Shown here in pieces: positions 12,305 through 27,792 of a stretch of DNA of 64,000 nt. The DNA lies in assembly GCA_965217585.1 (NCBI GenBank), contig OZ244561.1, positions 6,208,001 to 6,272,000 on the forward strand. Reading direction: 5' to 3'. Origin of the DNA: Candidatus Latescibacterota bacterium. GTDB lineage: Bacteria > Latescibacterota > UBA2968 > UBA8231. How positions within the stretch are numbered: the first letter of the stretch is position 1; every line of letters starts with the position of its first letter. A program made the position numbers and the translations under genes. A model generated the notes under the pieces. The model saw nothing but the letters and a program-made list of their open reading frames with translations. It made no database searches and was not told the DNA's origin.

Positions 12305-12828
12305 CGCCTGAATTCGGCCGGGATTTAGAGCATTCCAACAGGTTGCGCCTGATGTGGTCTGGCTCGCGGATGCGCGGGCGCGGGCGGCGGGTGGATTGGT
12401 CCGGGGTTATCCGCACCACTGAGGCGACCATTGTAGAGGCGACCACGGTCAGCTTTGACTCTGCGGCCGACGGCATCACCGCGACCGAGCCGCAGGCCGT
12501 GGCTTTTCAATCGCAGATCACGGGGGATTGCGACGGGATTGAGCTGGTGCTGGACGATGGGCGAGTCGGCAGCTTGGTGTTCGACTCTGCGGCGGGGACG
12601 ACGGAGATTGATCTGGCGGGGCTAGGCTACGAGCCGCTGCGTTTCGACTACGGTGGCTTGGACATGCAGTTGGTGGTGCAGTGCTATCCCGAGCGGGTGG
12701 AAGCGCTGGAGTTGACGCTGGAGACTGTGGATCAGCCGCCGGGGGAGGGGCAGGCCGCTTATTTCGTCAAGGCCATTCAGTGTGACGGGGAGATGGCTTG
12801 GTCGAGTCCGGTGTATGTGTTGGGGTGA
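12305..12828 (+). pseudogene. Duplicated 3' fragment of the DUF3604-like gene (repeat copy 2)
   Basis: Matches 9011-9524, ends AWSSPVYVLG*, and lacks the 5' three quarters of the gene. Confidence 0.9.
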
Positions 12829-12955
12829 GGAGGGGATGTCCTATTTTGTGGGGCCGCATAGTGCGCGATACACTTGCAATTAATGAGCAATACCACATCT
12901 TCATCTTGATTGTGATAAGAAGCACACATTCCGGCCAACTTATGGGGGCAGTGCT

Positions 12956-13252
12956 ATGGATACACACGACGATAACCTGACCGATGTTCGGACGATCAAG
13001 GCATCTGAGTTCAAGGCTAAATGCCTCAAGCTGATGGATGAGGTCGCCGATAGCGGCGTCGAGATTGTCATTACCAAGAACGGTCGCCCGGTATCGCGCC
13101 TCGTGCCTTATCACAAGGAGGCATCGAGCATGTTTGGCAGGGACCGGGACCGGATACGGATACTCGGGGACATTATTTCTCCTCTGGAATTTGACTGGGA
13201 TGAGAAAAGAGAATTGGCGCTCATCCAAGGGAAGAACCCAGACAAGCCATGA
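12956..13252 (+). CDS. Phd/YefM family antitoxin
   Basis: IKASEFKAKCLKLMDEV...IVITKNGRPVSRLVP is the canonical Phd fold. Confidence 0.9.
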   Translation: MDTHDDNLTDVRTIKASEFKAKCLKLMDEVADSGVEIVITKNGRPVSRLVPYHKEASSMFGRDRDRIRILGDIISPLEFDWDEKRELALIQGKNPDKP

Positions 13253-14415
13253 ATGGAAACAACGACTCTCAAACCAAACTCCCGTCACAGCTTAACTGGC
13301 TCAACTGGCTCGGGGTATCAGACGAAGACACCGCCGCTGTCGTCGAGTATCCATTTTACTCTGATGCACATATCACGAGTAAATTCACCGACGGCTTGGG
13401 TCCGTACAGCTTTCTAAACGCTATTCCGTTACACGATGGCCCCGGCGTCGTCAATTCTCCGATCATCCTGAGGGCTGCGATACACTTGCCCCAACCTCTT
13501 CCTGACAATGACAAGTTAGAGACGGACGAATCGCTTTACCACGGTGGGGATTTTGTCGACGAACTCGCAGCACTTACGTCGGTTGCTCTTGGTGTCCGAA
13601 TACGTGCAGGCGACGAATCACGCCGGTTCGACCCCGGACAAGATCCGTACGGACAACCTAGAGATTGGAGGTACGAACCCCAACCTGTTGTTCGTGTCCA
13701 ACCTAATCGACTGATCCTTCCATCAGTCGTTGGTACACATCCAATGAGTCAATTAGAAATAATGAAATCAATTCCTCGGATTGAGCCTGCTCGATACGTC
13801 AATCTAATTCGTGCGTGCAGATCCTACCAAGATGCACTTTGGATTGCGGAATCTGAACCGAATCTCGCGTGGCTAATGTTTGTCTCTGCTCTTGAAACGG
13901 CCGCAAACGATGTTTATACGACCGACGCTAGTCCTAGTGAACGCCTTCGGACATCTAAACCGGACCTTGGAGAGCTTCTCAAAGAACATGGAGGTGATAA
14001 ACTCGTTGATCAGGTGGCTGAGTTAATTGCGGACACATTTGGGGCAACCCAGAAGTTCATCAAATTTACGCTTAGATTCAAACCAAACGAGCCAGACCAA
14101 AGGCCTGATCAGGAGTATTGCCAAGTCAAATGGTCGAACTCTGGATTGAGGGATATCCTCTACAAGGTCTATCAATATCGTTCTCGGTCTCTACATGGCG
14201 GAATACCATTTCCCGTTCCAATGCTTGGATCTCCATTCTACGCTTCCCAAGATCCGACTGCATCAGAAATTCCATTAACAGGTCTTGCTTTACATTCACG
14301 CGGTGGAACATGGATTCCGGGGGACGCCCCCATTAATCTTCATTGCTTTCACTACATTACTCGTGGAGCACTACTCAAATGGTGGGAAGAGATGTCAGAA
14401 GAGGAAAGTCAATAA
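13249..14415 (+). CDS. HEPN-domain protein (ApeA/Abi-like putative RNase)
   Basis: RxxxxH motif (YQYRSRSLHGG) preceded by a helical MFVSALE segment. Visibly more AT-rich than the backbone. ATGA overlap with the Phd gene. Confidence 0.7.
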   Translation: MNGNNDSQTKLPSQLNWLNWLGVSDEDTAAVVEYPFYSDAHITSKFTDGLGPYSFLNAIPLHDGPGVVNSPIILRAAIHLPQPLPDNDKLETDESLYHGGDFVDELAALTSVALGVRIRAGDESRRFDPGQDPYGQPRDWRYEPQPVVRVQPNRLILPSVVGTHPMSQLEIMKSIPRIEPARYVNLIRACRSYQDALWIAESEPNLAWLMFVSALETAANDVYTTDASPSERLRTSKPDLGELLKEHGGDKLVDQVAELIADTFGATQKFIKFTLRFKPNEPDQRPDQEYCQVKWSNSGLRDILYKVYQYRSRSLHGGIPFPVPMLGSPFYASQDPTASEIPLTGLALHSRGGTWIPGDAPINLHCFHYITRGALLKWWEEMSEEESQ

Positions 14416-14431
14416 AAGCGAGTATCAAACG

Positions 14432-14749
14432 ATGAGTGAACAGTTCAAAAACGAGGCACTAGCGGCTGTGCATGAGACAGCCTTTGGACTTCACGAGGCG
14501 GGCGTCCTGAACAAAGTGACCATGAGGACATTTGACGAAATGTGCCTAACACCGTTCGAAGAGTTGACCCCGGAACAGATACGTCAAATCCGGCTACGCG
14601 AGCAGGTGAGCCAATCGGTTTTTGCTCGCTATCTGAATGTCTCGGAGGGCTTGGTGAACCAGTGGGAGTGCGGCGAAAGGCATCCGCATGGGGCTTCGCT
14701 CAAGCTGCTCACGCTTGTCGCGAGGAAGGGATTACAGGCGGTAGCGTGA
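14432..14749 (+). CDS. XRE/HigA-type helix-turn-helix antitoxin (no adjacent RelE toxin)
   Basis: TMRTFDEMCL...IRQIRLREQVSQSVFARYLNVS...QWECGERHPHGASLKLL. Confidence 0.88.
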   Translation: MSEQFKNEALAAVHETAFGLHEAGVLNKVTMRTFDEMCLTPFEELTPEQIRQIRLREQVSQSVFARYLNVSEGLVNQWECGERHPHGASLKLLTLVARKGLQAVA

Positions 14750-14761
14750 AACGGAAGCAGA

Positions 14762-15364
14762 TTGGACTCAAGTCTGCCCCACGCAAGCAACGCATCATCA
14801 GAGAGGACGGCAACCATGGCTATCCCCAATCCCATAATCAAGTTTACCTACGAAGATTACCTGAATACGCCGGAAGACAAGCGCTACGAGCTTCTGGACG
14901 GAGAGTTGGTTCCGACCCCTACGCCTGGAGAACTTCATCAGAGCATTTCCATCCTGCTAGGATCGAAACTGCTTCAATTCGCGTCTGAGAGTAGCTTGGG
15001 GCGGGTCTACCACGCGCCTTTTGACGTGGTGCTGTCGGATGTGGACGTGGTGCAGCCCGATCTGCTGTTCGTCTCCAATGAGCGCGGCCACATCATCACT
15101 CCCGCGAACATTCAGGGCGCACCGGACTTGGTCGTCGAAATCCTGTCCCCTTCCACAGCCGAACGCGACAGGACGTTCAAGCGCACTCTGTATGCCAATC
15201 ACGGTGTGAACGAGTACTGGATGGTGGACACCACCGCAAAAGACATAACAGTTCTGCTGCTCGGCGAGCGCGGATACGAGATCGTGGATACCTACGGCGA
15301 AGGAGAGACCTTGACTTCGCCGGCATTGCAAGGCTTTGCGTTGAATGTCGGCGATCTATTCTAA
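14762..15364 (+). repeat. Direct repeat copy 1 (Uma2 gene plus upstream BrnA-like remnant); copy 2 at 27188-27792
   Basis: About 600 bp of near-identical DNA from ttggactcaag to gatctattctaa in both copies. Confidence 0.95.
14816..15364 (+). CDS. Uma2 family (DUF820) PD-(D/E)XK endonuclease
   Basis: RYELLDGEL, VVQPDLLFV, GAPDLVVEILSPST and YANHGVNEYWMVD. Confidence 0.92.
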   Translation: MAIPNPIIKFTYEDYLNTPEDKRYELLDGELVPTPTPGELHQSISILLGSKLLQFASESSLGRVYHAPFDVVLSDVDVVQPDLLFVSNERGHIITPANIQGAPDLVVEILSPSTAERDRTFKRTLYANHGVNEYWMVDTTAKDITVLLLGERGYEIVDTYGEGETLTSPALQGFALNVGDLF

Positions 15365-16302: not shown

Positions 16303-17462
16303 TAAGTAGGTGACAAAAAGTTCGTTTACACCAGGTTTATGACTTCAGCCAGAAATTATCAGCGTAGACGCCGGCTTTTTGCAATCGCTCCTGCGGCCTC
16401 AGTTGCCAGATATACTGGCATGCCCTATCGGCGGACTCATCGATGGAGGCGGTGGGTTGGTTGGCCAACCCGCGTCCTTTCACCCAACGCCATAAATGAT
16501 CCATCGCATTCAACTCCGGGGTGGCCCGCGGTAATAGACGAATTTCCATATTCAGGTCGGCCGCCAACCGCAAACTGCCTTCCGCTTTATGAGGCGAGCC
16601 CCGATCTTCAAAGAGGACGATCTGCCATCCGCGCCAGTGGGCGCGTATGAGACGCAGAAAAATCTGGTGGGTATCTTGCGTCCATTCCTGCGAAATCAGC
16701 AGCGCGACCTCGCCACTTTTGATGTTAAGCGCGCCGTGCAGAATCCGTTTGGCGCGCTGGCCGGTGATCGGCACCTGCACCGGTTGGCCACGGTGCCCAT
16801 AACAACTATACAACGGCGGCGTTTCGGTGAGAATGACTTCATCCAGCATGAGGATTACGGTGCGTTTCCGCGTCGCCAGCCCCTTTTTAACCCGCCTTTG
16901 GCTTGCCGCCAAGTCGGCGAGCGCAAGGACAAGGTATGCCGAGGCCGTTTCCATTTAATATCTAATCGAACCAGCGCTTGGCGGATACTAGACACCGAAA
17001 CGCAGAGGGTATGCTCTGCGTGTAGATACTGCGCCAATAACGACGCGGTCCATACCGTTGAATTGAGGCCGAAAAGACGAGGATCGTGATCGATGACTTC
17101 GTCTAGCAGGGGCTCAATCACGCCTTTTACTTTACCCGGTCGTCCACTGCGGGGGGCGGCTTGAAGGCGCGTCGCCAGATTCGAGATCGACGATTGCTCA
17201 AACAGCCGGATCCATTTATAGATGGCTTGACGCGTAACACACAGGCGTTGAGCAACATGAGTTACCGAATCGCCCGCCGCCACCCAAAGCAGGGCTTGCG
17301 CTCGACGTAAGACCATCGCATCCGGGGTTTGGACGACCAAAGCCTCCAACAAGCGGCGCTCGCGGCGGGGAAGGGAAAACGGAGTCATAAGCGGCCTCCG
17401 GGCATACAACTAAGTTTAGAGGGCAAGGGAAAAGTGTCAACGGACTTTTTGTTAACTACTTA
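16303..17462 (-). mobile_element. IS630-family insertion sequence
   Basis: Terminal inverted repeats CTAAGTAGGTGACAAAAAGTTCGTTTACAC (16302-16331) and the reverse complement of 17434-17463 match at 26/30. Duplicated TA target within CTAG; DDE transposase inside. Confidence 0.92.
16337..17388 (-). CDS. IS630 transposase: two ORFs (HTH part and DDE part) joined by a probable -1 programmed frameshift
   Basis: ORF A has HTH and GRP motifs; ORF B has MLDE, FEDRGSPH and PELNAMDHLWRWVK. Slippery TTAAAAAG on the minus strand at 16883-16890 lies in the overlap. GGAGG RBS before ATG 17388. Confidence 0.85.
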
Positions 17463-17495
17463 GTCCGTGCCCCATTGAACCTCGACGACATATCC

Positions 17496-18866
17496 TTAAT
17501 AGAGTGCGGTGGTGTATCCAGGATTGAGAGACAGAAAGCTATTAGGATTGGGAACGGCGAGGCGCTGGTCAACAGAGAGCAGATCAATATCGATCAACTG
17601 ATAGGGGTTCTCGCCATGGAGAAGGCGTAGCACTTGGGCTAGTGCCAGCGTAGCCGCTACGGTGCCTACGAAGGGTGCGCCGACTGCCTTACCAGCTAGA
17701 AGCGTAACGCCGCAGCGATCCAGCTCGCCACTTTTGAGCATCTCTTGATAGGCAGGGCGATCCGCAACCGTTTCGGAGGGTGTCGCCGACTTCCAAATAT
17801 CCGCCGCCGAACGTGCCTCTGGTAGTACGTGTAGGCGTATGGTACGGAAGTTTTGTTGCCCTCTGCCAAGTCCGGCCTCGACAACCAGATCAAATCCCAC
17901 TTGATCGAGTGCTTGCCGTCCTAGAGCATTATCCAGACCACACAACGCGATGGCTGGTTCTTCATTTTGGCGATGGAAGCTGTTATCGAACCGTCGCTCC
18001 TGCAACGCTGTCGCAAACCCGCGTCGTTCTGCCCAAGTAGCCATGGCACGGGTCTTTTTCTGGCCTGCCATCGCCGCGTCGCTCAAAATTGACGTGCTTT
18101 CGGTTGATGGCGTGATCTCGTCTATATCCTGCAGCACGATAGAGAGACTACTTAGCTCTTTATATGGCAGTAGCCCAAGACCCCAAAGATACGCTTGCCC
18201 TAGGTGTCCGAGCCCGATTAGCCAAAGCCGCGATGGGAGATAGGTTATCTGAGGCTCGCCTAGATCAGGCTCAAGCCAATTTATGTCTGCGGCAGGCCGC
18301 CACAGTGAGAATCCTATCGGCCGTCGTCCAGCCGCAGGACTGCCTCCTTCCACGAATAGGAAGGCTTCATTAACTGCGAGGCCAGCGGACAGCATAGCCG
18401 CCAATGGTACAGTCGGTCCTGGGGCCGGCATTAGCTTTGAGTGCGCCGGAAGGATACCACCTCGCCATCCGGCGACTGCCGTGCGTATGTGAAACCCGGG
18501 CCGCTGTCGACGAGGCCCTCCGCCAATAACAATAGTCGGCGTTCCATCGGCTGGAGGCGTAAGCGTGCCACCGAGATCTATCACAGCCTCGTGGAGTCTA
18601 CACCGCAGGGGTAGTGGCACCTTCAGCGGTACATCTAAGTCGCCTTCTACGGAAACCCCACCGAGGAACACGCGACGTCCCAGTGCAACTGCTGTCAACA
18701 ACGCAATTTGATTGAGTGAATTCCGCGACTCTCGGCCGTGGATGGTAAGCGCAAGGCGATAGCCTTGAAAGAGACTCTTGGCCTCGTCGAGACTCTTGGC
18801 CTCTCCGCTATCGAGTGCGTACTTGACTAAGCGGTGCAGGTTGTCGGCGTGTGGTTTGGCAGTCAT
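17496..18866 (-). CDS. bilD: E1-like (ThiF) ubiquitin-activating enzyme of a Bil system
   Basis: N-terminal inactive adenylation-like domain, GLGHLGQ nucleotide-binding loop, QDIDEI, KKTR, CGLDN, and a candidate catalytic Cys385 in LDRCG followed by GAPFVG. Confidence 0.85.
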   Translation of the reverse strand: MTAKPHADNLHRLVKYALDSGEAKSLDEAKSLFQGYRLALTIHGRESRNSLNQIALLTAVALGRRVFLGGVSVEGDLDVPLKVPLPLRCRLHEAVIDLGGTLTPPADGTPTIVIGGGPRRQRPGFHIRTAVAGWRGGILPAHSKLMPAPGPTVPLAAMLSAGLAVNEAFLFVEGGSPAAGRRPIGFSLWRPAADINWLEPDLGEPQITYLPSRLWLIGLGHLGQAYLWGLGLLPYKELSSLSIVLQDIDEITPSTESTSILSDAAMAGQKKTRAMATWAERRGFATALQERRFDNSFHRQNEEPAIALCGLDNALGRQALDQVGFDLVVEAGLGRGQQNFRTIRLHVLPEARSAADIWKSATPSETVADRPAYQEMLKSGELDRCGVTLLAGKAVGAPFVGTVAATLALAQVLRLLHGENPYQLIDIDLLSVDQRLAVPNPNSFLSLNPGYTTALY

Positions 18867-18876
18867 GGATAATCCT

Positions 18877-19395
18877 CTATAAGCCGATGTGAAGAAAGGC
18901 CCTCCGGGTAGCGGGCGTGATGGTTTGCCAACGCTTCGAGCCTTGATAGCGGTAAATACCGATTTCGCGTTTCGAAAGCGGGCGAGCGGCGAAGCGCGGC
19001 AGGATTATTGCCAAATGACCTGCCTGCGCAATCATGGGATAGGTGCGATCTGACTCGCTCTGCTGTGATCCGCTTGGATGGACATGAATGTCGGCCACGA
19101 CAGATAGCCCTCTCTCTTTACAAATTGCCCAGAGCGTCCCGAAGTATCGCCCGTCGAAGCGGACTATGCCGGTATCAAGGCAATGCGGATCGAGATCATC
19201 GTACAGGACGAAATCGGTAATACGGGCACGTTTGCCCTTGTAATGCCCAAGCAGAAAAGCTCCACTTTCCCTAGACTTGCCGTGACCGCGTTCCCGTAAG
19301 CAGATCAGCAAACGACGCCAGAGAAACCAGGAACAGGACAACTCATGTCGCGGTGCAAGAAGGCGGCGTATAGTCTCCGCTATGGAGAAGTTCAT
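18877..19395 (-). CDS. bilC: JAB/JAMM metallo-deubiquitinase of a Bil system
   Basis: RESGAFLLG (catalytic E) and [16 protein letters not shown] (HxH...SxxD). GGAG RBS before ATG 19395. Confidence 0.88.
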
Positions 19396-19816
19396 GGACG
19401 ATCTCCAAGTATTGAACAATTCCTTCTACTGGCCGCCATATTTTTGACGGCATCTCGGTTCGCCAATTTTCATGCCCAGCAAAGCTTTCACGGTCACAAG
19501 GTAGATACAGAGCAGAGCCATTTTTCCAGTCGGTGCGAAAAACCGCTGAGACACGACCTCCTTGGCCTTGTGGCCAGAGATTGAATTCCAAGATAGTATC
19601 TTGCCCAGGATCCCATGGGCCGCCTGTAGGCGGAGCTTGCGGATATCCCTGGCAATTGAAGCGCATAACGTATTGACGCTCATCCTTCGCGGGCACGGAG
19701 ATCTGGACAAAGGGCCAGTCGATGCGAATCAAGCGCCAGCGTCCTTCTACTTGCCCGAGGCGGAACGCAGCCTTGGCCACGTCCGCCTCGAATGCTCGCT
19801 GGTCAGGAGCGCTCAA
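19343..19816 (-). CDS. bilB: E2-like ubiquitin-conjugating enzyme of a Bil system
   Basis: GYPQAPP proline motif of the UBC fold and candidate catalytic Cys107 in LYLPCDR. TTGA overlap with bilA. Confidence 0.82.
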
Positions 19817-20322
19817 GCTACGCTCCCGGTCGAGCCGTTCACCCTCTCGTCGGGGGCTAGGTCAAATGCTTGGCTGCAAGCGGGGCAATCCACCAGTGTG
19901 CCAATATGCGTCCCTGGAGTCGGCCTTTCGTGAGTACCGACCATTTGCAAAGCATACTCACCGGCGTCTTTTGGCTCCATGCCGAATTCCTTTTCGGCTG
20001 CCCAGCACTTGACACGGGCTATGGTCGCGCTTGGCCCGAAGTTGCGCTCGACGGTACGACCATTGAAGGTCACGCTGACTTTGACGAGACAACAGCGATG
20101 CAGGTGGATCTTTATATCCGTCCCCTTAACGCAATCGCTCACCTTCTCGTCTTCGTCGAGTGGATCGTCTTTGTCTTCCAAGAAGATGCACACATCGGCG
20201 GCGAGGCAATGCTTGTCGATCAGCTTGGTTTTGACAGTTGCGAATGTGGCGTCATCCTCAACTTCGACATGCTGTATCTCGCGGGATCCTTCACACTGAT
20301 AAAACAGATCGAGTGTAGCCAT
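19813..20322 (-). CDS. bilA: Tandem (ISG15-like) ubiquitin-like protein of a Bil system
   Basis: Two predicted beta-grasp units (second begins [26 protein letters not shown]). C-terminal RVNG followed by a 6-residue tail (STGSVA). AGGAGG RBS. Confidence 0.82.
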
Positions 20323-20381
20323 AATACGATCCTCCTAGGCTAGAGCGAAGCTCCATTGCCCGTCTCTGCCCTTCACTCTAT

Positions 20382-20411
20382 TAATCGGGTAGGAGGGTAG
20401 AAAGCGGAAAG
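20382..20411 (-). promoter_or_regulatory. Putative alternative-sigma promoter of bilABCD (TTTCCG-N17-CGATTA)
   Basis: Minus strand reads CTTTCCGCTTTC-TACCCTCCTACC-CGATTA. The same elements with the same spacing occur at 25358-25387. Confidence 0.65.
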
Positions 20412-20429
20412 TCGAGGTAGAAAAACTTT

Positions 20430-23400
20430 TTATGGGAGAGTCAGTGGCCCACGCGGCGTAGCAGCACAGACGAAAAAGTGCGGGCATCGCGGGCATGTTA
20501 CTTCGTTGATATTAGGTGGGAATTGCCCCTTCGCAATCTCTCTCAACATCTCGTCACTTCTATCTCGTCGTTTGTTGAGCTTATTCGACGAGATCAGTAC
20601 GTCATCGACCATCTCATCCATAAGATGCAGTGCTTGGACCATCGCACGAGTACCGAAATGGGCCTGACCAGCCAATCGATAAAGAGTGTAGTCGAGGCGA
20701 TCATATTCATCTGTGCGCTTGCGTCCTGTTCGGATCTTGCGTAGTGAGATCTTTCCGTCCGGCATATCAGCTATTTCGTCCGGCTCCACGACCACGCGAC
20801 CATTTGGAAAATCTACTGCTAACGGCTCAACCTCACGGGAACGCCGTTCAGTGCTGGCCCTGATTAGGGCCCCAACTAGTTGCAAAGCAAGGCGGCGGTG
20901 TTCGTCAGCGGAATTATGGTCGACAGGCCCATGTTTACGCCAAATTGTATCGAAGGCGGCTTCAGCCTCGGAGAGCGTCGGCTCAACTTCGCGTCGGCGC
21001 TCGGACACCCATTGGATGAGTTTGTAGAGGCAGTTATGGGTTTGAGAATAGGCAGTCGCTTTATGGATACCACCAAGCCCCAACATATGGGTGTAAAAGA
21101 AACGGCGAGGGCATTTCTCATAGGAGATGAGTGTACTATCTGTGACGTGCCATTCGGTGGATTGCGTTACTTGGATAGGCATCGGGCTCTGCATGTGGGC
21201 TGGTCTCGGTAAGACCACTGGATGGGCAATTTTGTCGATTGTCCTCTCTGGTAGCCAATCTAGAAAACGGGACGGAGATCGATTTCTGCCGTTGGAGCTT
21301 CGACGCGCCAAGTGGAGGCACAGATGGGTTTGCGCTCGAGAGAGCGCAACGAAAAACAGGCATTCCTCCTCGTGTTCGTGATTCCGCTTGGCTTCTTCCG
21401 AGACCGAAAAGCCCTCTGATCCCTCAGTCATGCCGATGGGCGGTGGGCATCGTACTCCACGGTACGAAGAGGGGAAGCTCGAAACCGTCAGGCCGGGTAC
21501 ATGGACTGCTTCAAACTCTAGCCCCTTACTACCATGAACAGTCATCAGCCGCACTGCATCTAGGTGGAGTGCGGCTGATGGCACTTGGCGCAAATCCCGC
21601 TCTTCGGCGAGTAGTACGAGCCGTCGGATACGATCCAGCATCCGCTGAATCGGCAAACCTGTGCCGGTCGGAGGCCTCTCGCGGACGAAGTTAAGGAATT
21701 GCCAAATCGCGACGCTCCGAATGTAGTCGGTGGTTGTCGTGGCTTGGGCCATCTCCCGCACAAGGCTAGTGCGATCAAGCAGATACGTTGAGATAAACTC
21801 CCATGCGGACACGCTTGATGAGAGCCCCGACAGATCCTGCGCGAGGCGAGCAAGTGCTGATGAGCCATCAGGCGAGATACCTTGAGCCTCAGCGAGCGTC
21901 TCTAGACCCGAAAGGGCCGGCTGATTGCTATCTCGCAGATGGTGCACTGCGGTATAGACATCTTGCATCGAAAGACCATAGCGAGGCATTGCTCCGACCC
22001 GCGCAAGGCCATTACCAAACGGATCAACCGCGAGGCTTAGAAGTGCTAGTAAATCACGCACTTCCTCGCGTTCGAACAAGCTGCCAAGATGCAAAACAGG
22101 AATGCCGTATGCCTCGAGGGCTGCGGCGATTTCATTCAGACGACGATTTGAGCGACAGAGCACGGCCTGATCACGGAGAGGAACGCCCGCGCATTCGAGG
22201 TCTCGGATGCTTCCGGCGATACCTCCGCCTTCGTCGTCGGGGGTGTCGTAGTACCGGACTTCCGGTTTTCCGAGACCAGAACCTCGGTCAGCGGCAAGGC
22301 CGAGTGGCAACATGCTCTCGGATGCACCCATCCGGGGAGCAACACTGACGAAACTGGCGACGATCTGCTCTGTCGATCTGTAGTTGATGGCGAGTTGGTC
22401 AATCACTGCACCTGGATAGTCGTCGCAAAAACGAGCCATATTGGTAGGGGACGCTCCGCGGAATCGGTAAATGGACTGGCGTGAGTCACCGACTACCCAC
22501 AAGCGTTTGCCATCTCCAGCGACCGCTTTTAACAAGCGTGCGCTCGCCCGGTTTACGTCCTGATATTCGTCGACGAGAAGATGGCGATGCCGTAGTTGAA
22601 TAGCCTGCTTGAGTGCTGGATCGGACTCTAGGAGCAATGCGGGCTGCATGATAAGGTCGCCAAAATCGACGGCACCCTGATCGCGCTTGGCTTGTTCGTA
22701 TAGATCATAGATGTCGGCAATCTCCAAGCACTTCTCGGCTGCCTTGTGAGCCTCATCGTCGTCTGCGGTCGTTTGCATAGCCTCGGCGAGCTTTCGATAG
22801 CGGATTCGGTCAACAAGTTCATCCTTAGCCCGCGAGATGGCAGGGATCACGTCTCGCAACACCATCGTCGGATCCCAGAAGTTGCGATAGTGGACAAGGG
22901 GCAGCGTCGGAAGGCTATCCTCAAGCACATCGATCGCATCACTACGGTCGAACAAGACTGGATTGGACGGTAGACCGAGGCGGTCATAGTGGCGCCGTAT
23001 AAGATCGAGGCCGAAAGCATGGAACGTCCCGATCCAAATACGTGCAGCGGCTTCTGGCACTATGGCCACCAGTCGCTCCAATAACTCACCGGCAGCCCGG
23101 TTCGAGAAGGTAAGGACGAGCAAAGAAGCTGGGTCAACGCCTTCTGCCAAGAGCGATTCAACGCGTTTTACCAGTGTCCGTGTTTTTCCGGTTCCCGGCC
23201 CAGCCTGAAGAAGGAATGGGGCGTCGCGATGTGTGGAAGCCCGGTCTTGCGACTGGTCCGGACTCGGTGTATAAGACGAAGCCATCGCCGGAGCTACTTC
23301 CTCCACCATCGGAAGTAGAAGGGCATCAAATATCTGCTGTCGGACGAGCGCCTTTGGCAAGTTCATGTGCGAGGCGATAGCTGAAGCGGTCATGGCCTTA

Positions 23401-23855
23401 GCTATGTAGAGCCGACGTGCAAAGCTCCGGGGTAGCAGAAATTCCCGAGCGAAAACATTGGCCTGTAGTTCACGCCGTTCCCGAGTGCCATAGTCCTCGA
23501 CACGCTGCAACCCAACGGGTACTACCTCAGTTGAACGGGATAGATCGATGTCATCCTTCGTACAAGCCGTCGAATCAGCGTGGATGTGTGCATGTCCAAG
23601 TTCGTGAGCCACAAGTAATGTACGGTCAATGATATCCCCGGCCATTTCACAGCAGATCGTACCGCTCTGTTCGTCGAACACCGCCCGGGCATTTTTTAGA
23701 GCAGGATCGCCCGGCGCAAGATAGACGAGTTCAAGGTCAAGGTGAGCCACAGCGGCCGTAATAAGTGCCGTAGTATCCACAGGATCAGTCCCCGCCTCGA
23801 TAATCTTATCGCGCAGATGCGCTGCGGACTTTCGGATTGGCTTGAAGGCTTCCAT
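20430..23855 (-). CDS. ImmA/IrrE metallopeptidase-UvrD/PcrA SF1 helicase-PD-(D/E)XK-like fusion protein
   Basis: AHELGH plus ELQANVFAREFLLP (IrrE_N). Helicase motifs AGPGTGKT, TFHAFG, VDEYQD, VGDSRQSIYRFRGA, NYRS, MTVHGSKGLEF and FVALSRA. C-terminal YEKCPRRFFY...CPRCPHFFVC is an AddB/Cas4-like 4-Cys pattern. Confidence 0.88.
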   Translation of the reverse strand: MEAFKPIRKSAAHLRDKIIEAGTDPVDTTALITAAVAHLDLELVYLAPGDPALKNARAVFDEQSGTICCEMAGDIIDRTLLVAHELGHAHIHADSTACTKDDIDLSRSTEVVPVGLQRVEDYGTRERRELQANVFAREFLLPRSFARRLYIAKAMTASAIASHMNLPKALVRQQIFDALLLPMVEEVAPAMASSYTPSPDQSQDRASTHRDAPFLLQAGPGTGKTRTLVKRVESLLAEGVDPASLLVLTFSNRAAGELLERLVAIVPEAAARIWIGTFHAFGLDLIRRHYDRLGLPSNPVLFDRSDAIDVLEDSLPTLPLVHYRNFWDPTMVLRDVIPAISRAKDELVDRIRYRKLAEAMQTTADDDEAHKAAEKCLEIADIYDLYEQAKRDQGAVDFGDLIMQPALLLESDPALKQAIQLRHRHLLVDEYQDVNRASARLLKAVAGDGKRLWVVGDSRQSIYRFRGASPTNMARFCDDYPGAVIDQLAINYRSTEQIVASFVSVAPRMGASESMLPLGLAADRGSGLGKPEVRYYDTPDDEGGGIAGSIRDLECAGVPLRDQAVLCRSNRRLNEIAAALEAYGIPVLHLGSLFEREEVRDLLALLSLAVDPFGNGLARVGAMPRYGLSMQDVYTAVHHLRDSNQPALSGLETLAEAQGISPDGSSALARLAQDLSGLSSSVSAWEFISTYLLDRTSLVREMAQATTTTDYIRSVAIWQFLNFVRERPPTGTGLPIQRMLDRIRRLVLLAEERDLRQVPSAALHLDAVRLMTVHGSKGLEFEAVHVPGLTVSSFPSSYRGVRCPPPIGMTEGSEGFSVSEEAKRNHEHEEECLFFVALSRAQTHLCLHLARRSSNGRNRSPSRFLDWLPERTIDKIAHPVVLPRPAHMQSPMPIQVTQSTEWHVTDSTLISYEKCPRRFFYTHMLGLGGIHKATAYSQTHNCLYKLIQWVSERRREVEPTLSEAEAAFDTIWRKHGPVDHNSADEHRRLALQLVGALIRASTERRSREVEPLAVDFPNGRVVVEPDEIADMPDGKISLRKIRTGRKRTDEYDRLDYTLYRLAGQAHFGTRAMVQALHLMDEMVDDVLISSNKLNKRRDRSDEMLREIAKGQFPPNINEVTCPRCPHFFVCAATPRGPLTLP

Positions 23856-23859
23856 CTGT

Positions 23860-24519
23860 TTAGAAACTCAGAAGTTGGTGCTGTTGGTCGTCGCTTAGCC
23901 CCGAACTCTTAACAGCCTCGACGAAGCTTTGTCGTTGGTTGCTGTCAGGCTTGTCGGCGGCCTTGTAAAACTGACGACTAGTATTTGTGCTTGGTGCAGC
24001 AAAGTAGGCAGTTACTAGGCTGATCGGAGTATTGAGCGCATCCGCAAGACACTGTAGAAAACTGCTAGGGATGGTATCCGGTTCAATTTGACGATCTCGC
24101 AGCTTGGCGACGAAAACGGTGTTTGCACCGATCCCGTCTGCTAACGCACGAAACGCTGCACGACTTAGTTCGGCGAAGGGATTGGGAGCATCTGCAACTT
24201 CCGGCGACGGAGCACGGTTGCTGGTCAGCTTGGTTGCTTGACGCACGGCGTGTAGGCGATTGTGGAATCGGCTCATTGCACGCGAGACTACAGGACTCAC
24301 ACGGTTCAGATCAATCTCAGCCTTTGAATCGACTTCAGGCTCGGGTCGAAGGGCATCCATAGCGAGTTCGATGGCAAACTCCGTGAGAGAATCGGCATAC
24401 TTCGGGAAGCGCCTAACGAAATCGTCAAGCAGCTCTGCGTCGGGTACACGCTTCGCTAGCGAAAACTCGTACAGCACATCGCGCAACGGTGCCGCGCTGG
24501 GGGTCAAATTCATGGTCAT
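23860..24519 (-). CDS. Hypothetical protein with an XRE-like HTH; putative anti-sigma or peptidase substrate
   Basis: AFRALADGIGANTVFVAKLRDRQI...LQCLADALNTP resembles an XRE HTH. ATGA overlap with the sigma gene and a 4-nt gap to the peptidase-helicase gene. Confidence 0.6.
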   Translation of the reverse strand: MTMNLTPSAAPLRDVLYEFSLAKRVPDAELLDDFVRRFPKYADSLTEFAIELAMDALRPEPEVDSKAEIDLNRVSPVVSRAMSRFHNRLHAVRQATKLTSNRAPSPEVADAPNPFAELSRAAFRALADGIGANTVFVAKLRDRQIEPDTIPSSFLQCLADALNTPISLVTAYFAAPSTNTSRQFYKAADKPDSNQRQSFVEAVKSSGLSDDQQHQLLSF

Positions 24520-25307
24520 GTCTCCTTTTTTAAGTGTGAAAGTTTCTCTGCTGCTCTTGAGAGACGATTACGAATGGTTCGACCTGAGACATTACATATT
24601 GTCGCTACAGTCACCTCATCAGGATTATTAGATTCGATTTTGTACTCCATGACATGACAGAGGATCACAGCCTTGCGCTCGTCATACGGCAAGGTATCAA
24701 TCGCTTCGTATATCTCTCTTAGCAGGACAGAACTCTCTGCTGTATCCTGACTCCTCAACGCTTCTATAAGTCGGGTGGGGACCTCCTTATGGGGAGGGCT
24801 ATATTCGACGTCATCGGCGTGGTCTGATGGGAACACTAATGGCTTGAGGCGGGCTTTTTCACTTCGCACGAGGTCGGTGTAAAAAGTATAGAACGCCCGG
24901 TTGAAGCGGCATTCAAAATAGTCAAGATCGTCGCGATTTTCTTCCGTGCCATCAGTGGCAAACAACTCGCCAAACTGTCCAAGTACTTCCTCCCGGACAT
25001 CCACAGCAGTCGGGAGTTTGTTGGCCGGGATTTTGGCTAATAAGATTGCTTCACATCGGGTGAGCAAGACAGGAAGCACTGCCTTGAAGACGGCGTCGTT
25101 GCTATTTCGACGTGCGTCCCGGATTAGATGGACCAGACACTCAGAATATACATAATCGGGTGCCTGATGATCGGCAACAGCGAGGTGGCATAGGAGCGTC
25201 GCTGAACTCTGGGCAAGAATCTTATTGATCTGTGCCTCCACTCGATGAGGACGGACATAGAGATTTCCAGTTTTATCGCGTTTGGTCAATGGACAAACCA
25301 TTTTCAT
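24516..25307 (-). CDS. ECF-like sigma-70 family factor
   Basis: Region 4 HTH: AIDTLPYDERKAVIL...VATICNVSGRTIRNRLSRA. Region-2-like segment: DVREEV...RFNRAFYTFYTDLVR. AAGGAGA RBS. Confidence 0.75.
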   Translation of the reverse strand: MKMVCPLTKRDKTGNLYVRPHRVEAQINKILAQSSATLLCHLAVADHQAPDYVYSECLVHLIRDARRNSNDAVFKAVLPVLLTRCEAILLAKIPANKLPTAVDVREEVLGQFGELFATDGTEENRDDLDYFECRFNRAFYTFYTDLVRSEKARLKPLVFPSDHADDVEYSPPHKEVPTRLIEALRSQDTAESSVLLREIYEAIDTLPYDERKAVILCHVMEYKIESNNPDEVTVATICNVSGRTIRNRLSRAAEKLSHLKKET

Positions 25308-25357
25308 TCTCCTTTATATGAAGCGGATACCGGGCATACAGATCCCTTATACTTCTA

Positions 25358-25387
25358 TAATCGTATTAAGTTGGGGAAACCGGAAAG
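25358..25387 (-). promoter_or_regulatory. Putative autoregulated promoter of the sigma operon (TTTCCG-N17-CGATTA)
   Basis: Minus strand reads CTTTCCGGTTTC-CCCAACTTAATA-CGATTA, matching 20382-20411. Confidence 0.65.
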
Positions 25388-25402
25388 ATGCCTAAACTTT
25401 TT

Positions 25403-26224
25403 CTAATTTGCAGTATCGACTGGAGCACCAGCAGCTTGTAAAGGTGCCCTAAGCTGCTGACCTGCCTCCACTTCTGGATACTCCAACCACTGCCGTCCAT
25501 CGAGCGTATTCCCACCCGCTTTAGGAGTGCGCCCACCCCATTGCTTAAAGAAAAAGGCGACGCGCTGGGCCTGACACCGGTCGCGCAATGCCCGCACCCA
25601 TTCTGCTTGCACCGGACGCGCTCCCGGCCCGCTCTCACCCCCGGCGATTACCCAATGAATACCCGCGAAATCCACCGCGCCGATTGGACCGAGCAACGGC
25701 TCGAAGGAAACGAAGCGCACGGAGGCATTGGTCTGTTGCAAGTGCCGGAGGCGCGTCAAAGCCGCGTGGTTTTCGACGGACACGCCGAGCCAGATATGCG
25801 AGGGAGCCGCTTGGCCCCGGCGATGCCCTGAGCTTGCCGAAGCACCAGTCGAAGGGTAGCGCTCTTGGACGAAACGGCGCATCAGTGAACTGCGCTTGGT
25901 AAGCACTTGATAGATATGCCAATCGGCGCGCTCCATGGTGTCGAATACGCGCTCAATGTACTCGGTGGGAATGTCCTTGTGGAAGAGATCGCTCATCGAA
26001 TTGACGAAGATGAGCTGTGAACGCCGCCAGTGCATGGGTTGTTCGAGGCGCTTGGGGCGAAGGGTTAGATCAAAGCCCGACTCGAAAGGGTGTCCCTCGA
26101 CGCCGCGGAAACGCTCAGAAAGGCGCTCGGCATAGCAATGGTCGCAGCCAGCGCTAATCTTCGTGCAGCCGGTGGCTGGGTTCCAAGTGCTGTTAGTCCA
26201 CTCGATAGTGCTTTTGCGAGACAT
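25403..26224 (-). CDS. DUF5131 / phage Gp37-Gp68 family protein (three-Cys, radical-SAM-like)
   Basis: IEWTNSTWNPATGCTKISAGCDHCYA, FVNSMSDLFH, LTKR, SFEPLLG, GGESG and FFFKQWG. Confidence 0.92.
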   Translation of the reverse strand: MSRKSTIEWTNSTWNPATGCTKISAGCDHCYAERLSERFRGVEGHPFESGFDLTLRPKRLEQPMHWRRSQLIFVNSMSDLFHKDIPTEYIERVFDTMERADWHIYQVLTKRSSLMRRFVQERYPSTGASASSGHRRGQAAPSHIWLGVSVENHAALTRLRHLQQTNASVRFVSFEPLLGPIGAVDFAGIHWVIAGGESGPGARPVQAEWVRALRDRCQAQRVAFFFKQWGGRTPKAGGNTLDGRQWLEYPEVEAGQQLRAPLQAAGAPVDTAN

Positions 26225-26263
26225 GAGAGACCTTTACGCAACCAAAAATCATAACTGAACATA

Positions 26264-26291
26264 ATTGTAGTATTTCCCGGTCCAATGTCAA
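26264..26291 (-). promoter_or_regulatory. sigma70-type promoter upstream of DUF5131
   Basis: Minus-strand TTGACA (26286-26291)-N16-TACAAT (26264-26269). Confidence 0.6.
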
Positions 26292-26459
26292 GGTGGCCTT
26301 GGGTACGGGCGACCTGCCGAGGACAGCGACCCCCTCCGCATGCACGATAATCCCGCTATCGAGTTGACAATGCTCAGAGCGTCTATCTTATTGACACATA
26401 AGTACTGAACCGCCGCCTGACGGAAGGCGCAAATTCTTTGTGGGCATTAGGTTATATCC

Positions 26460-26801
26460 ATGCATACTGTAGTGGAATTACCTGAATATTTGCGCCGGGC
26501 AGACCGGTTGCTATCGGAGGATGAGCGCCAAGAGCTGGTCGATTATCTGGCAGAGCATCCCGAAGCGGGTATCATAATGCGCGGCATGGGAGGGATCAGG
26601 AAGCTCCGATGGGCACGCACGGGGATGGGCAAGCGCGGCGGTGTACGGGTTATCTACTACTACCACAACGAGCAGATGCCGCTTTACCTCTTAACATTGT
26701 TCGGCAAAGGAGCGAAAGACGATCTCAACTCCTCTGAGCGTCGTGCGTTGCGCGACTTCGTCCACAACTTGATCGAGACATGGAGAAGGCCCCATGAGTA
26801 G
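26460..26801 (+). CDS. RelE/HigB family toxin
   Basis: PEAGIIMRGMGGIRKLRW...GKRGGVRVIYYY...LLTLFGK. Confidence 0.92.
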   Translation: MHTVVELPEYLRRADRLLSEDERQELVDYLAEHPEAGIIMRGMGGIRKLRWARTGMGKRGGVRVIYYYHNEQMPLYLLTLFGKGAKDDLNSSERRALRDFVHNLIETWRRPHE

Positions 26802-27087
26802 CGTTTTTGAGAGTATCAAACAAGGATTGACTGAAGCGATCGAGCACGCGGCAGGCCAGCCAAGTCAGGCGGTCGTGCATCCTCCAAAGACCACCGATGT
26901 AAAAGCTATTCGGGAGCAAGTCGGTATGACGCAAACGGCCTTTGCGGCCGCATTTGGTATTAGCCTCAGCACCCTGCGGCATTGGGAGCGAGGGGATCGG
27001 ACCCCTAAAGGACCCGCACGGGTGTTGCTACATGTGGCGGCTCGCGAACCCCAGGCGGTTTTGCGAGCTTTGAAGAAAGCGAGTTAA
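26794..27087 (+). CDS. HigA-like XRE antitoxin
   Basis: FESIKQGLTEAI...DVKAIREQVGMTQTAFAAAFGISLSTLRHWERG; 8-nt overlap with the toxin. Confidence 0.92.
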   Translation: MSSVFESIKQGLTEAIEHAAGQPSQAVVHPPKTTDVKAIREQVGMTQTAFAAAFGISLSTLRHWERGDRTPKGPARVLLHVAAREPQAVLRALKKAS

Positions 27088-27099
27088 AGACCGCTCGAC

Positions 27100-27230
27100 A
27101 TGCTTTTTGGCTCTTCTTCGCCCTCTGATTATCGGGATGAATATCCTAAAGTGACGCAAGCAGATTTGGACCGTGCGGTATTCCGCGTTGGACTCAAGCC
27201 TGCGCCACGTAAGCAACGCATCGCCAGAGA
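27100..27230 (+). pseudogene. Truncated BrnA-like antitoxin fragment running into the Uma2 leader
   Basis: YPKVTQADLDRAVFRVGLKPAPRKQRI resembles a BrnA N-terminus, but the RHH part is missing. A shorter piece of the same sequence precedes the first Uma2 copy. Confidence 0.5.
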
Positions 27231-27243
27231 GAGGACGGCAACC

Positions 27244-27792
27244 ATGGCTATCCCCAATCCCGTAGTCAAGTTTACCTACGAAGACTACCTGAATACGCCG
27301 GAAGACAAGCGCTACGAGCTTCTGGACGGAGAGTTGGTTCCGACTCCTGCACCTGGAGAACGTCACCAGAGCATTTCCATCCTGCTAGGATCAAAACTGT
27401 TTCAATTTGCGTCTGAGAATAGCTTGGGGCGGGTCTATCTCGCGCCTTTTGACGTGGTGCTGTCGGACATGGACGTGGTGCAGCCCGATCTGCTGTTCGT
27501 CTCCAATGAGCGCGGCCACATCATCACCCCTGCAAACATTCAGGGGGCGCCGGACTTGGTCGTCGAAATCCTGTCCCCCTCCACAGCCGAACGCGATAAG
27601 ACGTTCAAGCGTGCGCTATATGCCAGACACGGCGTGAACGAATACTGGATGGTGGACACTACCGCAAAAGACATAACGGTCCTGTTGCTCGGCGAGCGCG
27701 GATACGAGATCGTGGATACCTACGGCGAAGGAGAGACCTTGACTTCGCCGACCTTGCAAGGCTTCGCGCTGAATATCGGCGATCTATTCTAA
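27244..27792 (+). CDS. Uma2 family endonuclease (copy 2)
   Basis: About 13 amino-acid differences from 14816..15364 over 182 aa. Confidence 0.92.
   Translation: MAIPNPVVKFTYEDYLNTPEDKRYELLDGELVPTPAPGERHQSISILLGSKLFQFASENSLGRVYLAPFDVVLSDMDVVQPDLLFVSNERGHIITPANIQGAPDLVVEILSPSTAERDKTFKRALYARHGVNEYWMVDTTAKDITVLLLGERGYEIVDTYGEGETLTSPTLQGFALNIGDLF

Follow-up and report, generated by a model that had tools for sequence, protein, structure and literature searches.

A bipartite motif before a sigma-like gene and the bilABCD operon of Candidatus Latescibacterota is probably the promoter of an island-encoded ECF-type sigma factor

Two copies of the bipartite motif TTTCCG-N17-CGATTA, at 25358-25386 and at 20382-20410, both on the minus strand, are found in a 64,000-nucleotide stretch of the genome of a Candidatus Latescibacterota bacterium (the whole stretch is called the window here). 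One copy precedes the gene of a sigma-like protein, and the other precedes bilABCD, an anti-phage operon for ubiquitin-like conjugation. The sigma-like gene is the first of a cassette of three, followed by that of a 219-residue partner protein and that of a fusion of an M78 peptidase with a helicase and a nuclease. We think it quite probable that the two boxes of the motif are promoter elements, a -35-like CTTTCCGG and a -10-like CGAT[T/C]A, that are read by the extracytoplasmic function (ECF)-type sigma factor of the same island. This reading is supported because the motif is conserved in position, orientation and spacing, goes with the cassette, is unique to this locus in its genome, varies in common at the two promoters of a locus and lies beside the gene of a protein with a predicted sigma fold.

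The copy 5' of the sigma-like gene, P_sig, reads CTTTCCGGTTTCCCCAACTTAATACGATTA (25387..25358, minus strand), with TTTCCG at 25386..25381, CGATTA at 25363..25358 and the longer -35-like element CTTTCCGGTTTC at 25387..25376. The copy 5' of bilA, P_bil, reads CTTTCCGCTTTCTACCCTCCTACCCGATTA (20411..20382, minus strand), with TTTCCG at 20410..20405 and CGATTA at 20387..20382; it begins 20 nt past the stop codon of the helicase-nuclease gene. The extended first box CTTTCCGNTTTC is alike at 11 of 12 positions between the two copies, and the spacer is 17 nt in each, so that an earlier reading made from the letters of this DNA (the sequence-only reading), which had claimed the same motif before both genes, is borne out in these respects. 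Its statement that the motifs end about 50-60 bp before the start codons also holds: the second hexamer of P_bil lies 59 nt from the ATG of bilA (20322), and that of P_sig lies 50 nt from the first ATG of the sigma-like open reading frame (25307) or 56 nt from the second (25301). The second ATG is probably the true start because it agrees better with the N-terminus of the homologues and with the sequence AGGAG. The tract that it had noticed upstream of both sites stands only in part. AAAAAGTTT is present 5' of both copies, but at unequal distances of 12 and 7 nt from TTTCCG, and in the information profile of the homologues the upstream AAAAGTTT tract is reduced to a loose A-rich stretch. Because the homologues keep only this loose A-tract, the shared AAAAAGTTT is a weak detail.

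That the pair is far beyond chance was confirmed by counting. With at most one mismatch allowed, the window holds three matches against 0.27 expected, and none of 100 shuffles reached three. In the whole genome of 7,323,734 bases there are two exact matches, both at this locus and on the same strand, while the reversed control pattern has none. It could be argued that the similarity arose by chance or is a leftover without function, such as that of a local duplication, as by our own arithmetic a genome of this size should contain a 12-base pattern about once. Against this stands the finding, described below, that both positions are kept in dozens of loci at 33-50% protein identity with varying spacer and flanks, and we regard such an explanation as hardly credible.

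A position weight matrix built from the homologous sites was also run over the window's own genome, where it ranked P_sig first (31.3 bits) and P_bil second (27.2 bits). The third match (C1:4266063, 24.2 bits) was considered as a regulon member and set aside as a chance match: it lies inside a 724-residue open reading frame, on the opposite strand, with no gene downstream. Since the matrix ranks the two sites first and second, and the third match is intragenic on the other strand, we conclude that the predicted regulon in this genome comprises just P_sig and P_bil; the genome scan that the sequence-only reading had proposed for finding further members yielded none. No housekeeping-type promoter (TTGACA-N16-18-TATAAT, at least 9 of 12 positions) was found before the sigma-like gene or bilA when the minus strand was scanned from 17000 to 26600. 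The earlier description of a -35/-10 geometry that departs from the housekeeping consensus agrees with this result and with the spacer of 17 ± 1 nt seen among the homologues.

In the protein collection, 352 relatives of the sigma-like protein were found at E ≤1e-3. Scanning one genome per species gave 77 homologous loci, 1.09 Mb in all, from Latescibacterota, Alpha-, Beta- and Gammaproteobacteria, Acidobacteriota, Binatia, Planctomycetota, Chloroflexia and others, and the gene order sigma, partner, helicase-peptidase, bilABCD is kept in most of them. When both strands were scanned for the strict pattern TTTCCG-N17-CGAT[CT]A, 92 copies were found, against an expectation of about 0.3 in 1.09 Mb (own arithmetic, uniform composition). 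All of them (100%) lie on the operon strand: 45 are just 5' of the sigma gene, 41 just 5' of bilA and six elsewhere. We also used a relaxed score against CTTTCCGG and CGATYA, in which at least 12 of 14 positions mean that the motif is present; counts by this score include the window. By this score, 60 of 68 loci have the motif 5' of the sigma gene and 47 of 48 have it 5' of bilA. Of these 107 sites, 97 have a spacer of 17 nt, nine of 18 nt and one of 16 nt, and most lie 55-68 nt from the start codon. When 87 non-identical sites were profiled for information content, two sharp boxes stood out with an unconstrained spacer between them. The conservation at homologous loci that the sequence-only reading had named as a check was thus seen at both positions, in many phyla and in one orientation.

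There are also loci in which the motif is placed in an unusual way. One locus (L035) has two tandem copies (12901 and 12976) before bilA, and in some of L035, L036 (12961), L053 (4563), L118, L121 and L128 the motif stands 108-184 nt before the start codon, where about 60 nt is usual. These tandem or distant copies could be due to insertions in the leader or to errors in the assigned gene starts.

Whether the motif belongs to the cassette or to Bil operons in general was addressed by loci with and without the cassette. A metagenome scan with BilD kept 80 of 495 relatives; 28 without a detectable bilA start and two with a short upstream region were dropped, leaving 50 evaluable loci. The helicase gene is upstream in 49 of these 50, and 47 of the 49 carry the motif at the threshold of 12/14, the other two scoring 11; the single locus without the cassette scores 10/14. 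Among 401 sampled Pseudomonadota genomes, six hold BilD, and five regions were examined as controls. The bilA-proximal motif is absent in four Bil operons without the cassette, two of which (L164 and L166, where bilA was undetected by tblastn) were judged by whole-locus scan only. The fifth region (L167) does have the cassette, together with a variant motif at both promoters. In the loci compared in this way, motif sites were shown to occur only where the cassette occurs.

The variant motifs are informative since P_sig and P_bil were shown to vary together within a locus. A locus of Chloroflexia (L069) has TTTCAGGTTT...GATTGATG at both the sigma and the bilA promoters, and another locus (L077) has this variant before bilA. 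TTACC[G/T]G-N16/17-CGATTG is found at both promoters in a locus of Verrucomicrobiota (L074), and GGTTCCGG...GGAATTA at both promoters in the proteobacterial control region L167. The helix of sigma4 that is predicted to read the -35 box differs in step with the box: GRTIRNRLSRA goes with TTTCCGG, EKTVRNRR with TTACCGG and RTIYNWLE with TTTCAGG. As evidence of pairing between protein and promoter this is suggestive and not proof, because the variant groups are also phylogenetic clades.

These comparisons bear on the idea that it is a chromosomal sigma factor of the host, and not that of the island, that recognises the motif as a promoter. Genomes of about 7 Mb usually hold many ECF sigma factors, and the tie between the motif and the island sigma is drawn from sequence and prediction. 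But the motif accompanies the cassette in Latescibacterota, Pseudomonadota, Acidobacteriota, Binatia and others, also on plasmids; this genome has only the two sites of the island; Bil operons without the cassette are without the motif; and the motif variants follow the cassette's own sigma clade. We therefore consider a host sigma factor very unlikely to be the reader. The claim of the sequence-only reading that the motif is the cognate promoter of the island's sigma, linking the regulator to bil, is supported by this comparison and by the structural predictions that follow, and we hold it to be probably right.

The sigma-like protein, encoded at 24516..25307 on the minus strand (263 aa), would be a diverged ECF-like sigma factor. 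Its only Pfam match is Sigma70_r4_2 (PF08281; 31.3 bits, cut-off 25.7), and all 29 of 29 family members have this match. An AlphaFold (AF2) model of the protein has a mean predicted local distance difference test score (pLDDT) of 77. When the model was compared with the PDB by Foldseek, the top 14 rows were all ECF sigma factors, including sigmaH, sigmaE, sigmaL, AlgU and SigW; for sigmaH, sigmaE and sigmaL, 190-230 columns were aligned with E of 1.5e-3 to 8e-3 and probabilities of 0.99-1.0. In the VIA comparisons region 4 superimposes on that of sigmaE bound to -35 DNA (2h27_A; Z 9.7, root-mean-square deviation (rmsd) 2.6 Å, 69 residues) and on SigD4 (Z 9.4, rmsd 1.4 Å, 62 residues). The whole-chain alignments cover about 155-168 residues with a large rmsd because the sigma domains are posed differently; that with sigmaE (1or7_A) covers 155 residues (52-262) with Z 9.7, but with an rmsd of 17.5 Å. 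On these models, membership of the ECF group is shown for sigma4 and only indicated for sigma2. The protein also has an N-terminal extension of about 50 residues. Homologues of the gene are present on 61 plasmids (30 of Acinetobacter, the others of rhizobia and further hosts). Both motifs are present on a plasmid of Rhizobium leguminosarum, and a TTACCG variant precedes the multiubiquitin gene on a plasmid of Acinetobacter.

The 219-residue partner (23860..24519, minus strand) is a candidate cytoplasmic anti-sigma factor, predicted to have an N-terminal sigma-binding half and a C-terminal XRE-like helix-turn-helix (HTH). Its start overlaps the sigma stop by 4 nt, in the window and in most loci. 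It has no match in Pfam, NCBIfam or PADLOC, and by eye no long hydrophobic stretches resembling membrane spans are seen in the partner alignment. The model of the partner (pLDDT 80) gave only weak local fold matches (E >1), all of them to HTH domains of the XRE type: P22 c2, the 434 repressor, SinR, DdrO and the N-terminal domain of CapH (7t5u, 28% identity over 47 columns). DdrO and CapH are substrates of M78 peptidases. The predicted complex of sigma-like protein and partner scored 0.78 (0.79, 0.78 and 0.77 in separate runs) against 0.00 for the best control, a mark attained by 58 of 80 solved complexes and by two of 110 mismatched pairs. The runs share at least 84% of their contacts, with a partner pLDDT of at least 75. 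In the predicted interface, residues 3-92 of the partner contact residues 78-150 and 184-237 of the sigma-like protein, i.e. both sigma domains, and the HTH-like half of the partner stays outside. The model supports the suggestion that the partner binds sigma in the manner of an anti-sigma factor, with its N-terminal half clamping sigma2 and sigma4.

The resemblance to repressors brings in another explanation, namely that the motif is an operator, bound either by the 219-residue HTH-like protein in the role of a repressor like CapH or by the sigma-like protein, which would use its region-4 HTH as an ordinary transcription factor does, with transcription starting from another promoter. In its favour are the weak likeness of the partner's fold to XRE repressors including CapH and DdrO, and the control of known Bil and Bub operons by the repressor and protease CapH/CapP, as described in preprints on these systems. 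The annotations of the sigma-like homologues in public records also lend it something: besides 'hypothetical protein' and 'sigma-70 family', they include 'DNA-binding response regulator' and 'transcriptional regulator'. Yet the motif is not palindromic, and this argues against the operator of an XRE protein that the sequence-only reading had offered as the alternative. Moreover, 92 of the 92 strict copies face the downstream gene; two conserved boxes at a fixed distance of 17 ± 1 nt of free sequence have the geometry of a sigma-dependent promoter; neither site has a housekeeping-type promoter from which transcription could start; both sigma domains were recovered by the fold search; and the predicted complex places the N-terminal half of the partner on sigma2 and sigma4 with the HTH-like half off the interface. 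An operator is, in our judgement, an unlikely explanation of the motif.

The third gene of the cassette (20430..23855, minus strand) encodes a protein of 1141 residues, in which Pfam finds Peptidase_M78 at 81-171, UvrD-helicase, UvrD_C and PDDEXK_1, so that an M78 (IrrE/ImmA-like) peptidase is fused with a UvrD-type superfamily 1 helicase and a PD-(D/E)XK nuclease. The match to the peptidase family (PF06114) has 25.5 bits against a cut-off of 22. The HExxH motif is HELGH at residues 84-88; among 51 full-length homologues, HExxH is kept in 50 and the Walker A motif in 50. The domains make the fusion a candidate for a DNA sensor and protease in one.

If the promoter reading is right, the P_sig copy would drive the operon of the sigma factor itself, with the partner and the M78/UvrD/nuclease fusion, so that the sigma factor would be positively autoregulated, and the P_bil copy would drive bilABCD. 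By analogy with CapH/CapP, DdrO/IrrE and ImmR/ImmA, we propose that the helicase-nuclease meets foreign or damaged DNA, upon which the fused M78 peptidase would cut the partner protein. The freed sigma factor could then bind core RNA polymerase and transcribe from both promoters, amplifying itself and switching on Bil. Transcription would be expected to start about 6-9 nt after CGATTA, which for bilA is near 20373-20376. Put more broadly, we see about an even chance that the cassette is a mobile three-gene switch, in which a DNA-tracking helicase/nuclease-M78 protein cuts a cytoplasmic CapH-like anti-sigma factor and so frees a private sigma factor reading CTTTCCGG-N17-CGATYA, and that this switch is specialised for Bil or Bub operons, sometimes with a caspase-like gene, and spreads on plasmids.

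Several observations weigh against the promoter reading or parts of it. Pfam Sigma70_r2 was not detected in the 263-residue protein or in the family members, and the NCBIfam model sigma70-ECF (TIGR02937) matches residues 132-257 at 34.4 bits, under its cut-off of 42.9. For these reasons the assignment of sigma2 comes from the predicted fold, with the large whole-chain rmsd mentioned above. The boxes TTTCCGG / CGATYA depart from GGAAC / CGT, the usual consensus of ECF promoters. Eight of the 68 regions 5' of the sigma gene score below 12/14, and all but one of them (L063, 33%) belong to homologues of 24-29% identity. In three loci (L068, L071 and L073) a variant motif is present only before the ubiquitin-like gene and not within 220 nt of the sigma gene; because of these loci, either autoregulation would not be universal or the gene starts are misplaced. 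The score of the predicted complex may partly reflect likeness to solved pairs, since structures of sigma/anti-sigma complexes have been solved. The modelled HTH-like domain of the partner might bind DNA, and a combined role as anti-sigma factor and at an operator would then be conceivable. Read-through from P_sig could also serve bil, because P_bil begins so close behind the helicase stop and no terminator-like site is predicted in the 20 nt between them.

Metatranscriptome contigs weigh on neither side. Two metatranscriptome runs contain 8-10% of the sampled words, and their contigs, compared with 17400-26300, are 90-99% alike to the window and so derive from a relative. They cover 22296-24869 and 25451-26124, where they reach into the genes of the helicase, the partner, the sigma-like protein and DUF5131, and leave bilABCD uncovered. 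These contigs show neither transcription starts nor strand, and their missing cover is uninformative, so that they speak neither for nor against expression or the predicted starts; carry-over of DNA is possible. Compared with the window, they have 12 additional nt inserted behind 23301.

The presumed target of the sigma factor, bilABCD (17496..20322, minus strand), has its genes for a ubiquitin-like protein, an E2, a JAB deubiquitinase and an E1 in the order bilA-B-C-D, as in the definition of BilABCD (bacterial ISG15-like), and all four match the PADLOC models strongly: bilA at 20322..19813 (E 2.4e-53), bilB at 19816..19343 (E 9.9e-62), bilC at 19419..18877 (E 5.5e-67) and bilD at 18866..17496 (E 3.3e-167), each on the minus strand.

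The leader of bilA contains a conserved stem-loop (20337..20371, minus strand), predicted to have an outer stem GGGCAGAG / CTCT(A)GCC and an inner GGC-loop-GCC hairpin; in homologous leaders the outer stem is GGGAC-GAAG / CTTCG-(A)-TCCC. A covariance model (R1) gave 42 matches in 55 sources, each beside a bilA-linked motif site, in the window and 41 other loci. In the R1 alignment 89.7% of cells are paired compared with 83.9% in shuffles, and eight of 13 pairs change on both sides, which none of 500 shuffles equals, these statistics coming from an alignment that was itself fitted to the structure. RNAalifold on a MAFFT alignment of the leaders recovered only the inner 4-bp hairpin, and Rfam had no match at E ≤1 in 17000-27000. 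A cruder stem search (9/9 pairs in 13 of 38 sequences against 10 of 760 shuffles) was replaced, its null being weak, with at least eight pairs in 26% of shuffles. Given the expected transcription start, the bilA mRNA would begin with this stem-loop. Many alphaproteobacterial leaders could form another hairpin in its place, CACTTCG / CGGAGTG, in which the Shine-Dalgarno sequence would be buried, and this hints at translational control.

Targets other than Bil are suggested by distant copies of the three-gene cassette that stand before Bub-like operons, with Multi_ubiq, a ThiF-type E1 with DUF6791, and DUF6527. These loci are L068, L071, L073 and L074 (about 12760-15300), L063 (8480-10660) and L082 (13760-14596); in L068 the Bub-like operon is followed by a SAVED-HNH effector. 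The motif directly before the Bub-like ubiquitin-like gene is TTACCGG-N17-CGATT[A/G], and in L063 it is TTTCCGG-N17-CGATCA. In two alphaproteobacterial loci (L040, 6156-7705, and L041, 6149-7700) a third motif copy precedes a caspase-like (Peptidase_C14) gene about 1.8 kb 5' of the sigma gene, with an in-frame GTG or ATG 65-77 nt past the second box. Because of this third copy, the sigma regulon can, as far as motif positions tell, include other effectors.

Upstream of P_sig lies a DUF5131 gene (26224..25403, minus strand), which also matches the PADLOC candidates PDC-M41B and PDC-M30B. It is outside the conserved unit and is common to one other locus only (L003). The only strong housekeeping promoter of the scan, a near-consensus TTGACA-16-TACAAT (11/12; 26291..26264, minus strand), precedes this gene. 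Since no terminator-like site was found between the DUF5131 gene and P_sig, read-through from that promoter could give basal expression of the cassette. The flanks of the island, at 16337-16954 (minus strand), 26460-26801 and 27100-27792 (both plus strand), contain a DDE_3 transposase fragment, a gene for a toxin like RelE and one for an endonuclease of the Uma2 family (PADLOC PDC-S03). Such flanks fit a mobile defence island.

The cassette resembles two kinds of known system. Like the autoregulated modules of ECF sigma and anti-sigma factors (sigmaE-RseA, AlgU-MucA, SigW-RsiW), it has a small sigma factor, predicted to have two domains, encoded beside its partner, the partner predicted to lie between sigma2 and sigma4, and a bipartite promoter-like motif with a 17-nt spacer before both its own operon and a small regulon; structures from these modules are also the best fold matches of the cassette sigma. 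Unlike in these modules, region 2 of the cassette sigma is too diverged for Pfam and follows an N-terminal extension of about 50 residues, the partner has a predicted XRE-like domain and no evident membrane span, and its presumed cleavage would fall to the M78 domain of the helicase-nuclease fusion instead of a membrane cascade of site-1 and site-2 proteases. The accessible text of a preprint on the re-classification of ECF sigma factors makes no mention of helicase, UvrD, M78, nuclease, ubiquitin or ThiF.

The other kind comprises CapH/CapP, DdrO/IrrE and ImmR/ImmA, in which an XRE repressor is cut by an M78 peptidase that is activated by single-stranded DNA or by damage. The cassette likewise encodes an M78 peptidase with intact HExxH, beside a small protein with weak fold likeness to XRE domains, but this small protein is predicted to bind sigma rather than to act as a repressor, and the peptidase shares one chain with a UvrD helicase and a PD-(D/E)XK nuclease, whereas CapH and CapP are two stand-alone genes. 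The output would be activation through a private promoter instead of de-repression. The genes of CapH/CapP are described as divergent from the operon that they regulate and as sharing its promoter region; the three genes of the cassette are co-directional and upstream of bil. Taken together, the models suggest that the cassette combines a switch of the ECF sigma/anti-sigma type with a CapP-like peptidase fused to a helicase.

For sigma-controlled defence genes, the nearest precedent in the literature available to us appears to be DdvS/DdvA of Myxococcus xanthus, an ECF sigma factor and a transmembrane anti-sigma factor that control an island of CBASS (cyclic-oligonucleotide-based antiphage signalling system) and type III-B CRISPR-Cas, according to the report on it (PMC11506125). 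In both systems a dedicated ECF-type sigma factor would switch on anti-phage genes. DdvA is transmembrane, whereas the cassette partner is predicted to be cytoplasmic and linked to a helicase-nuclease-peptidase, and the targets here are Bil and Bub.

As to Bil and Bub themselves, the regulators named in the accessible text of the preprints are only CapH/CapP and CapW/BrxR, with no mention there of a sigma factor or a helicase. According to these preprints, CapH/CapP accompanies 25 Bil (CEHH/6C) operons (15%) and 168 of 544 Bub operons (31%); one Bil preprint names it as the regulator of 15% of operons, and the other, in the text available, names no regulator. A 2026 preprint (PMC13228613), whose title calls CapP a peptidase stimulated by single-stranded DNA, mentions neither sigma factor nor helicase in its accessible part. 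Full-text searches of openly available papers, preprint supplements aside, gave no account of the cassette, nor one that links Bil or Bub to a sigma factor or to a helicase-fused peptidase.

Bil and Bub are bacterial relatives of the ubiquitin-like antiviral pathways of eukaryotes, and the mechanism of their induction is known only where CapH/CapP or CapW controls them, in a fraction of the operons. The motif is a concrete cis-element that would connect a large clade of Bil operons, to which 49 of the 50 evaluable loci from metagenomes belong, with a sigma factor of their own and a helicase-fused peptidase. It predicts a transcription start, a regulon of two promoters, a positive feedback loop and a route from DNA sensing to transcription that is absent from the literature searched. 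Rhizobia and pseudomonads that can be cultivated have homologues, on plasmids or other contigs, and possible carriers include Rhizobium leguminosarum (plasmid locus L081), Pseudomonas tumuqii (L006) and Paraburkholderia phenoliruptrix (L012). If the reading is true, the cassette would represent a new signalling route, in which the sensing of DNA leads to the release of a sigma factor, and a compact, orthogonal pair of sigma factor and promoter, which, because only two sites occur in a genome of 7.3 Mb, looks orthogonal enough for use as a genetic part.

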